Below the pieces are notes generated by a model, which worked only from the letters and a program-made list of their open reading frames with translations, made no database searches and had not been told where the DNA came from. Of a stretch of DNA of 1,800 bases, positions 1-1,800 are shown in pieces. This DNA is from Escherichia coli (GTDB taxonomy: Bacteria > Pseudomonadota > Gammaproteobacteria > Enterobacterales > Enterobacteriaceae). The stretch lies in assembly GCF_003334355.1 (NCBI RefSeq), contig NZ_QOWP01000080.1; one strand, 5' to 3'. The position numbers were made by a program, and so were the translations under genes. Position 1 is the stretch's first letter, and the number at the start of each line of letters is the position of its first letter.

Positions 1-1800
1 GTCAGCCTGCCGTGACGGTCATACCGGTAAAGATAGTGCGCGTCACGGGCGATACGGTTATCCGGCCACATGCTGAGGGTGCTGTCCGGGTGCAGCTCCG
101 GGTCGGGCAGGCGGTTGCCCGCCGGGTCCGTGGCATACGGGATGCGGATATCCAGATTCGCTGCGGTGGTGTGAACGCCGGTCAGCCTGCCGGTGGTGCT
201 GTAGCTGTAACTCCGGGTCTGGCGCGGGCTGCTGATGCGGATGAGTTCGCCGTTGTCGTTCCAGGTGTAATCGCGGTCATACTGCAGGCTGTTCAGGTGC
301 TGACGCTGTAACTGCCCGGCAGGGGTGTAAGCGGTGGTGAGTTCATAACGACCGAAGCTGCGCAGCGTTTCCCGGTGCAGGCGGTCGCGGGTGAAATCCA
401 CCAGCGGTGTGTCGCCGAGCTTCATGCCTGCCAGCCAGCCGCTGCCGTAGGTCAGCCATTCCACGGCGGGCAGGCTGTCCGGTATACAGCGGTTCGCCAG
501 CCCCTGCGCGTTGTACGCATGTCTGGTCTCATGCTGCCAGAGCAGTGCTTCCGTCTCCGGGTGATGCACCGTCTGGCGCTCACCGGTCAGGCGGCCTTTC
601 TCATCATACCTGTAATGCACCGCCACCCGGTGCCCTTCGCTGATATGGCTGATGTCTGTCAGCCAGCCACGTTCGTCATACTGCCACCGCTCTGCGGTTT
701 CACCCTTCACGGTGCGGTGCGTGAGGCGGTCTGCTTCGTCATAGTGCCAGTGGGTGACCAGACCCTCATCCTCGCTGCGGATAAGTTTGCCGGTCAGGTC
801 GTGGTGATAACGCTGTGTGCGGCCGTCAAAGCCGGTTTCCTGTATCAGCCGGTCAAGTACATCGTAACGGAAGGTGGTGTGGCTGCCGTTTTCACTGGTC
901 AGGCGGATGACCCGTCCGGCAGCATCGTATTCCATACTGCGCGTCAGCCCGCCCTGCGTGGTACGGACGGCCTTTCCCCACGCATCGTACTGTGTCCCGT
1001 TTCTGCTGCCGTCCGGGGCAATGACGGCGGTCAGGTCACCGGCGATGTTGTATTCATACCGCGTTTCATGGCCCTGCGTGTCTTTCACGGCAATTAACTG
1101 TCCACGGCTGTCGTATGCGCGGTACTGACTCAGCCCTTCCTCGCGGTGCACCGCCGTCATCTGCCCGAAGCGGTCATGGTCATAACGGGTTACATAACCG
1201 GAACAGTCGGTGAAGCTCAGCAACTGACCGTAACGGCTCCACGTCATGGTTTTCCGGCTGCCGGTGGCATCTTCCGTTGCGCAGGGTAAGTCACTGTGTG
1301 GATTATCATAACGGTAGCGGGTGATATCGCCGTCAGGGGCAGTTTCCTGAATCAGACGGCCCAATTCATCATATTCCCGGCGCAATTCCAGCCCGTCAGG
1401 CCCGGTGGCTGACGTTAACTGGTTGTGGTGGTTATAGTAAAACGCCGATGCCCTGCCATCCGGCGTGGTTATGCGCGTGATGAGGCCCGTCACCACATCC
1501 GGGCTGTATTCTGTTGTCCGGCCTGCGGCATCCGTCTGTGTCCTGAGCCTGCCCACGGCGTCAAACTGACTCTGCGTGACGCTGCCGTCCGCGTGTTCCT
1601 TTTTCACCACCCGCTTCAGCCCGGCTTCGCCCTGCGTGTGCAGCACTTCACGGCGGTCCAGGCTGTCGGTGATGGTGATGTGGTCTTTCTCATACTGATA
1701 CGTGTAGCTTAAGCCTGCCGGGTTAAGCTGTTCTGTCACCCGCCCGTCGCTGTCGTAACGGTAACGGATTTCCGGCCGGCCCGTGTGACGGTGCGCCACC
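1..1800 (-). CDS. Rhs-family YD-repeat core protein (RhsA-D-like polymorphic toxin scaffold), internal fragment, partial at both ends; N-terminus beyond coordinate 1800, C-terminus beyond coordinate 1
   Basis: Seen in sequence: the reverse-complement frame whose first full codon is 1799..1797 (GTG) runs 599 codons to 5..3 with no stop; coordinates 2..1 are the start of the next codon. Translation begins [74 protein letters not shown] and ends [21 protein letters not shown]. It carries many YD-repeat motifs, e.g. [127 protein letters not shown]. Composition is GC-rich (35/60 and 40/60 G+C in two hand-counted lines). Established knowledge: this motif pattern and periodicity define Rhs/YD-repeat shell proteins. 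Paralog and species cannot be assigned without a database search. Confidence 0.92.

Follow-up and report, generated by a model that had tools for sequence, protein, structure and literature searches.

Among described Rhs systems, Tse5 of Pseudomonas aeruginosa (PA2684; structures 8cp6/9i9y) provides the closest account of a short N-terminal head. Its N-terminal fragment (Tse5-NT, M1-K47) is PAAR-like, is cleaved between K47 and P48, is anchored by the DUF6531 plug and is needed for VgrG1c-dependent secretion; the cryo-EM structure covers the plug and the shell, with residues 1-29 not resolved (PMC10684867). Another group has named the same N-terminus a 'cryptic PAAR-like domain' (PMC7376260). 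The canonical PAAR-Rhs proteins (P. protegens RhsA, 7q97; P0107, P0110, P0062) have three PAAR motifs, with a prefix of ~61 residues, and P. protegens RhsA additionally has a prePAAR motif, transmembrane helices and an Eag chaperone. In E. coli, the RhsA/B/C/F cores (NF041261) correspond to the neighbourless Rhs (Rhs-Nb) of Ma et al. 2017, which are related to the Rhs proteins of the T6SS2 cluster according to a review summarising that work (PMC6730261). The rhsA/B/C clade is orphan in strain EDL933, and it is described as unclear which VgrG, if any, moves this orphan clade; a further Rhs, encoded in the T6SS-2 island of O157:H7 (ECs_0237/z0268, 'paar'), belongs to another, RhsD/E-like clade (PMC7216683).

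The DNA analysed here, hereafter the window, is a stretch of 1,800 nucleotides from an E. coli contig (NZ_QOWP01000080.1). A minus-strand frame starting at window base 1799 spans all of it as 599 codons with zero stops, and a six-frame check found 6-33 stops in each of the remaining five frames; such an open frame arose in 0 of 2000 shuffles of the window sequence. The G+C content is 61% overall and 73.5% at third codon positions. The translated fragment aligns end to end and unbroken with positions 356-959 of the 1261 positions of the NCBIfam profile RHS_core (NF041261), where it scores 1223 bits against a cut-off of 2000 bits with only 599 of the ~1250 core residues present; a full-length relative, 99.5% identical, reaches 2642 bits on the same profile. 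The YD repeats within the fragment score 129 bits on TIGR01643 (YD_repeat_2x; cut-off 15.8), which identifies it as a YD-repeat core.

The original prediction held that the gene continues past the right edge of the window and that the first in-window codons already lie inside the repeat shell. Both statements hold (Table 1): the frame remains open up to the edge, where the single remaining base completes a codon of the relatives, a YD repeat occurs within the first codons, and the corresponding stretch of a relative falls on residues 253-333 of the Tse5 shell chain 8cp6_B. The C-terminal Rhs-associated core domain of the full-length relative (TIGR03696, 80.5 bits, residues 1170-1247) falls off the left edge. 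Considering the evidence set out below together, the window is likely to represent the central part of a full-length polymorphic-toxin gene of the E. coli/Shigella Rhs type, belonging to the RhsA/B/C/F ('neighbourless', Rhs-Nb) subfamily; its product would have a one-motif head and would be loaded in trans onto a T6SS-2-type VgrG. Opposite the rhs frame lie two antisense ORFs, at window positions 375-1097 (+, 240 aa) and 1425-1712 (+, 95 aa); such shadow ORFs are common opposite G+C-rich genes with a GC3 bias, and these two have no support as genes.

Table 1. Features at the right edge of the window, and genes upstream of the orphan-type rhs sites in relatives.
Feature	Window position	Strand	Upstream gene(s)	Basis or remark
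Internal Rhs core fragment, RhsA/B/C/F-type	1..1799	-		Residues 347-945 by the numbering of ~1400-aa relatives; open at both window edges
First 40 in-window codons, already beta-cocoon shell	1680..1799	-		Translation; alignment of a relative to Tse5 shell chain 8cp6_B
First in-window YD repeat core, RYRYDSDG	1743..1763	-		Motif scan; TIGR01643 matches
Final base (G) of codon 346, which is ATG (M346) in relatives	1800	-		Window aligned with the rhsC-site gene of J3 and rhsB of VG1046
rhsC (J3, E. albertii)			kdp-ybfA	
rhsB			nikR	
rhsA			yibF	
Fourth site, with 'dsORF-f3' (classical RhsF)			priA-rpmE	

By megablast the window was found in 3,900 of 5,426 complete E. coli genomes, at a median of five places per genome, and 3,872 of the 5,426 carry it at 95-99.5% nucleotide identity over its whole length. 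The best identities belong to the rhsC-site gene of strain J3 (99.5%) and to rhsB of VG1046 (99.4%), followed by rhsB of B-lineage laboratory strains (99.1%). Exact matches to the window were absent from the 5,426 complete E. coli genomes; scans of species-representative genomes, viral contigs and metagenome contigs for two 136-nt stretches of the window (300-435 and 426-561) gave zero exact matches, and identities in the plasmid and phage collections reached at most 97.7%. The fragment shares the profile register of the RhsA/B/C/F cores, and alignment with the two best matches revealed how it differs from any one of them: it carries rhsC-type polymorphisms at reverse-complement positions 77-1369 and rhsB-type polymorphisms at 1301-1800, every variable site agrees with one type or the other, and there are no private substitutions. 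Judged from these sites, the window is a gene-conversion mosaic of paralogous Rhs cores, and because it combines rhsB and rhsC types its locus cannot be assigned. The feature itself is ordinary, being already described or readable from annotated genomes as RhsA/B/C/F or 'neighbourless Rhs'.

What lies to the right of base 1800 was deduced from close relatives (99.1-99.5% identity across the window) together with the K-12 and E. albertii paralogs. In J3 rhsC, VG1046 rhsB, K-12 rhsA, the rhsF-site copy and E. albertii, the start codon lies 1037-1038 nt past the position of the window edge. By the numbering of these relatives the first in-window residue is V347 (junction YRGRM/VAHRH) and 346 residues are missing, a length that is identical across all full-length copies examined. 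The 'few hundred codons' that had been anticipated beyond base 1800 would accordingly number 346 if the window copy resembles its near-identical relatives.

We are confident, from this close kinship, that the anatomy of the missing N-terminus is the one seen in the relatives. There, residues 1-29 form a head (MSGKPAARQGDMTQYGGSIVQGSAGVRIG) equivalent to only the third of three PAAR repeats, residues 30-47 form a conserved GVACSVCPGG linker ending at H/N47-P48, and the DUF6531 plug (PF20148) occupies residues 48-123 (profile match 46-123, E 3.5e-17). The stretch from residue ~125 to 346, about 220 residues, comprises the first turns of the cocoon and was aligned to the Tse5 shell. Plug and shell together make up ~300 of the 346 residues, and only residues 1-47 precede the plug; most of the missing region would be plug and shell rather than a separate targeting domain. 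The two cysteines of GVACSVCPGG are invariant.

The alternative that this copy is 5'-truncated or interrupted just past the window, by an IS element, a frameshift or as an orphan core fragment, and so has no functional N-terminus, appears very unlikely. Rhs loci do carry ISAs1/IS1 elements and partial rhs fragments, some genomes annotate N-terminal pieces alone ('DUF6531' or 'DUF8616 domain-containing protein') at standard loci, and the allele combination of the window is without an exact counterpart in complete genomes. However, the 599 codons are open without a defect and each of the best 30 megablast matches has an RHS core or rhsB annotation. Moreover, the downstream orphan fragments examined are much shorter and consist of the 3' end of the core only (ECs_0242, 1761 nt), whereas the window spans core positions 356-959. 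The N-terminal-only annotations, for example NZ_OZ547614.1:318277-319313 and NZ_CP074033.1, imply truncated or frameshifted copies in those genomes.

Whether a protein carries a PAAR domain was decided by the presence of a complete cone-forming domain with three motifs and a score above the PF05488/NF033420 thresholds. No complete three-motif PAAR domain was found in the N-termini of the relatives, and all scores fell below the family thresholds: the head aligned with positions 68-94 of the 94 in NF033420 at 13.6 bits against a cut-off of 124, and with positions 51-69 of the 70 in PF05488 at E 0.2. In profile and structure alignments, head residues 2-29 (SGKPAARQGDMTQYGGSIVQGSAGVRIG) match the last PAAR motif and nothing else, and on PAAR proteins of known structure they register with 67-93 of 93 residues in 4jiv_D and with 71-98 of 99 in 9rce_c. 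The single motif of the relatives' head, residues 8-16 (L001:10985-11011), reads AARQGDMTQYGG. At the position of the typical PAAR histidine (AARMGDTTSHGG in 9rce_c) the orphan copies have tyrosine and the O157 island copy has lysine.

The relatives likewise fall outside the prePAAR/TMD-Eag class. Their head sequence AARQGDMTQY is without the histidine of AARxxDxxxH, and inspection for transmembrane content found no hydrophobic segment between head and plug; an Eag chaperone is therefore not expected. What the relatives do have is the layout of the Tse5-like short-head class, namely a head of ~47 residues with one PAAR-like motif, followed by P-V-N-P-x-L-G and the plug, with cleavage predicted. 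When residues 1-130 were searched against 1.84 billion representative proteins, query residue 1 corresponded to protein residue 1-4 in most full-length matches. These short-head matches extend down to ~48% identity; a minority of the matches carry a 61-residue prefix instead. These prefixed relatives (~50% identity) display three motifs, RPAARKGD...GLPAARMGD...GKPAARVTD, and the short heads begin exactly at motif 3. The head is near-invariant between the orphan and the vgrG-linked copies, even where overall identity falls to 70-85%, which argues that it is still under selection.

The likeness to Tse5 extends over the whole N-terminal layout: a PAAR-like fragment of ~47 residues, a cleavage site (predicted in the relatives) before P-V-N-P-x-L-G-x-K, a DUF6531 plug and a YD shell. 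Residues 48-424 of a relative match Tse5 with E 3e-37, and chain 8cp6_B begins at the residue aligned to P48; the H/N47-P48 junction is homologous to the N-terminal autocleavage site of Tse5. The two systems differ in that the tse5 gene adjoins the spike gene vgrG1c whereas the E. coli copies are orphans, in having K47 rather than H47, and in their low overall identity. With the canonical PAAR-Rhs proteins the E. coli family shares the third PAAR motif, the ACSxCPG linker, the PVNPxLGAKVL cleavage and plug region, and the shell; unlike them, it starts at motif 3 and is without the histidine of that motif.

The layout of head, plug and shell recurs in the Rhs of the O157:H7 T6SS-2 island. This protein is 70% identical both to the window and to the missing N-terminus, and its gene (ECs_0237) lies inside the T6SS-2 cluster, 75 nt downstream of vgrG, with vgrG and hcp upstream. 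Pseudocitrobacter faecalis provides a second case: its gene order is priA-rpmE-vgrG-rhs, the vgrG is intact (TIGR03361, 595 bits), and the Rhs encoded after it has an 80%-identical N-terminus. The syntenic site in E. coli, priA-rpmE-rhsF, is without vgrG (L006:7329-10001 versus L014:8643-9015). On this synteny, vgrG has been lost or gained at one chromosomal site between E. coli RhsF and Pseudocitrobacter. The VgrG of P. faecalis is 67% identical to that of the O157 island over its full length and bears no extra C-terminal adaptor domain.

A third case, from Citrobacter amalonaticus, was considered as an example of a pseudogenised vgrG and was downgraded, an assembly error being likely. On contig JARDVN010000001.1 of this species three rhs ORFs (L007, L008 and L009) all stop after ~780-830 codons, L008 has in-frame stops in its 5' part, and upstream of L007 the vgrG is in two pieces. 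Such a pattern suggests assembly indel errors rather than real pseudogenes.

At the five orphan-type loci examined, the upstream neighbours were all housekeeping genes, and no vgrG, PAAR or EagR gene was found there. To count such arrangements across the 5,426 complete genomes, junction probes were used alongside a subfamily-specific probe taken just outside the right edge of the window; the rhsA, rhsC and rhsF junction probes carried 300 nt of locus-specific flank, and the nikR-rhsB flank is unrelated to the others. The yibF-rhsA junction was present in 3,731 genomes, nikR-rhsB in 2,112, ybfA-rhsC in 3,685 and rpmE-rhsF in 2,177. These sum to 11,705, or ~97% of the 12,055 subfamily-specific N-terminal places, an approximate share, since genomes were counted on one side and places on the other and a few weak partial matches enter the probe count; ~3% of subfamily copies fall outside the four orphan junctions. 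The subfamily is absent from 1,542 of the 5,426 genomes. Among carriers the rhsA and rhsC sites are near-universally filled; for rhsB and for rhsF the share is a little over half in each case.

Two other probe designs were discarded. Junction counts with 150-nt flanks were invalid for rhsA and rhsC owing to a common leader of ~118 nt. A chimeric probe joining the Sakai vgrG to an RhsA/B/C-type N-terminus was non-discriminating, as megablast ran on through the Sakai-type rhs N-terminus, and its top match, UTME-7, is a frameshift-ridden assembly of an O157-type T6SS-2 island.

The shared leader lies directly 5' of the start codon (L001:10846-10963, L003:7066-7183), and the rhsA and rhsC sequences are 93% identical across a 148-nt stretch that takes in the first 30 coding nt. 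The rhsB and rpmE-site copies share only its last ~17 nt (AAAAGGATTTTACG-ATG). The leader may serve as a promoter or 5'UTR that travels with the element.

These counts bear on the possibility that the source-genome copy is itself vgrG-linked, with vgrG (with or without hcp and T6SS core genes) directly to the right of the missing 5' end and loading encoded in cis. The same head architecture does adjoin vgrG in the O157 island, in Pseudocitrobacter and possibly at Citrobacter L007, and the ~3% of E. coli copies beyond the four junctions leave some room for it. However, the vgrG-linked Rhs of E. coli has only 70% protein identity to the window, against at least 99% DNA identity for the orphan type; all five orphan-type loci have a housekeeping gene upstream, as do the copies at the four junctions; and neither the rhsA/rhsC leader nor the rpmE-rhsF spacer contained a detectable vgrG 3' remnant. 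We therefore regard linkage to vgrG in this genome as exceedingly unlikely, the chance of a vgrG directly upstream of a subfamily copy being bounded, approximately and from these genome surveys, at a few per cent. The gene upstream of the window copy is most likely yibF, nikR, ybfA or rpmE, rather than a vgrG, PAAR or EagR gene. An extension of the contig would be expected beforehand to add 346 codons with a one-motif PAAR-like head and a DUF6531 plug, and then a housekeeping neighbour.

According to the favoured model, the short head would attach the cocoon to a VgrG spike of the T6SS-2 type whose gene lies elsewhere in the genome. Such a VgrG, acting in trans, is suggested because Rhs proteins with the same head adjoin vgrG in the O157 island and in Pseudocitrobacter, and because the head is near-invariant. 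The review of Ma et al. 2017 (PMC6730261) reports that Rhs-CT5 (Z5014, rhsA locus of EHEC) is antibacterial and mediates interbacterial inhibition, and that killing by Rhs-CT3 is lost in a ClpV2 mutant. Taking these published genetics on family members with the sequence comparisons, we lean somewhat towards trans-loading onto a T6SS-2-type VgrG. Delivery of the toxin would then depend on a host T6SS-2 and a compatible VgrG encoded elsewhere, and in hosts that have no T6SS (K-12, B) the Rhs protein would not be exportable by the VgrG route.

That last group of hosts raises the alternative that orphan Rhs proteins are not T6SS cargo in their host, and that they act inside the producer like a toxin-antitoxin system or form a silent recombination reservoir, the head being a relic. 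E. coli K-12 and B are without a T6SS (PMC6730261), yet strains of both keep intact copies, and many of the closest hosts of the window (BL21, the K-12 lineage) are among them. The one-motif head also fails PAAR models, and Salmonella Rhs elements are reported to act as type II TA modules (PMC7043789). A relic is nevertheless difficult to reconcile with a head that is almost invariant between orphan and vgrG-linked copies, which points to continued selection, or with the interbacterial killing mediated by Rhs-CT5 and by the ClpV2-dependent Rhs-CT3. We consider this alternative unlikely, and trans-loading remains the preferred reading.

The way in which one third of a PAAR cone would engage a trimeric spike is a question for the class as a whole rather than for this window. 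This Rhs family, the most widespread one in E. coli, resembles Tse5 in having a single repeat out of the three that make up such a cone. We know of no single PAAR repeat that caps a VgrG trimer. It is conceivable, though quite unlikely, that the head loads VgrG non-canonically; for example, three heads (from three cocoons) may rebuild the cap, or a single strand may dock next to a separate PAAR protein or take its place. If so, the fact that the head hardly varies among orphan copies would reflect selection for trans-loading onto any T6SS-2 spike.

Finally, several database records outside E. coli chromosomes contain closely similar sequence. A 5.2-kb 'Klebsiella oxytoca plasmid' (NZ_CP069926.1) is largely Rhs core, as are unannotated 'Escherichia phage' records of 1.6-3.3 kb (OR845342.1 and others); at 96.6-98.2% identity to the window, these are likely chromosomal fragments and not real replicons or phages. 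E. coli-like Rhs N-termini also occur on short contigs filed under an Oscillospiraceae MAG (97%), a Lentisphaerae MAG (80%) and Rheinheimera sp. A13L (99%), which probably represent contamination or misbinning.
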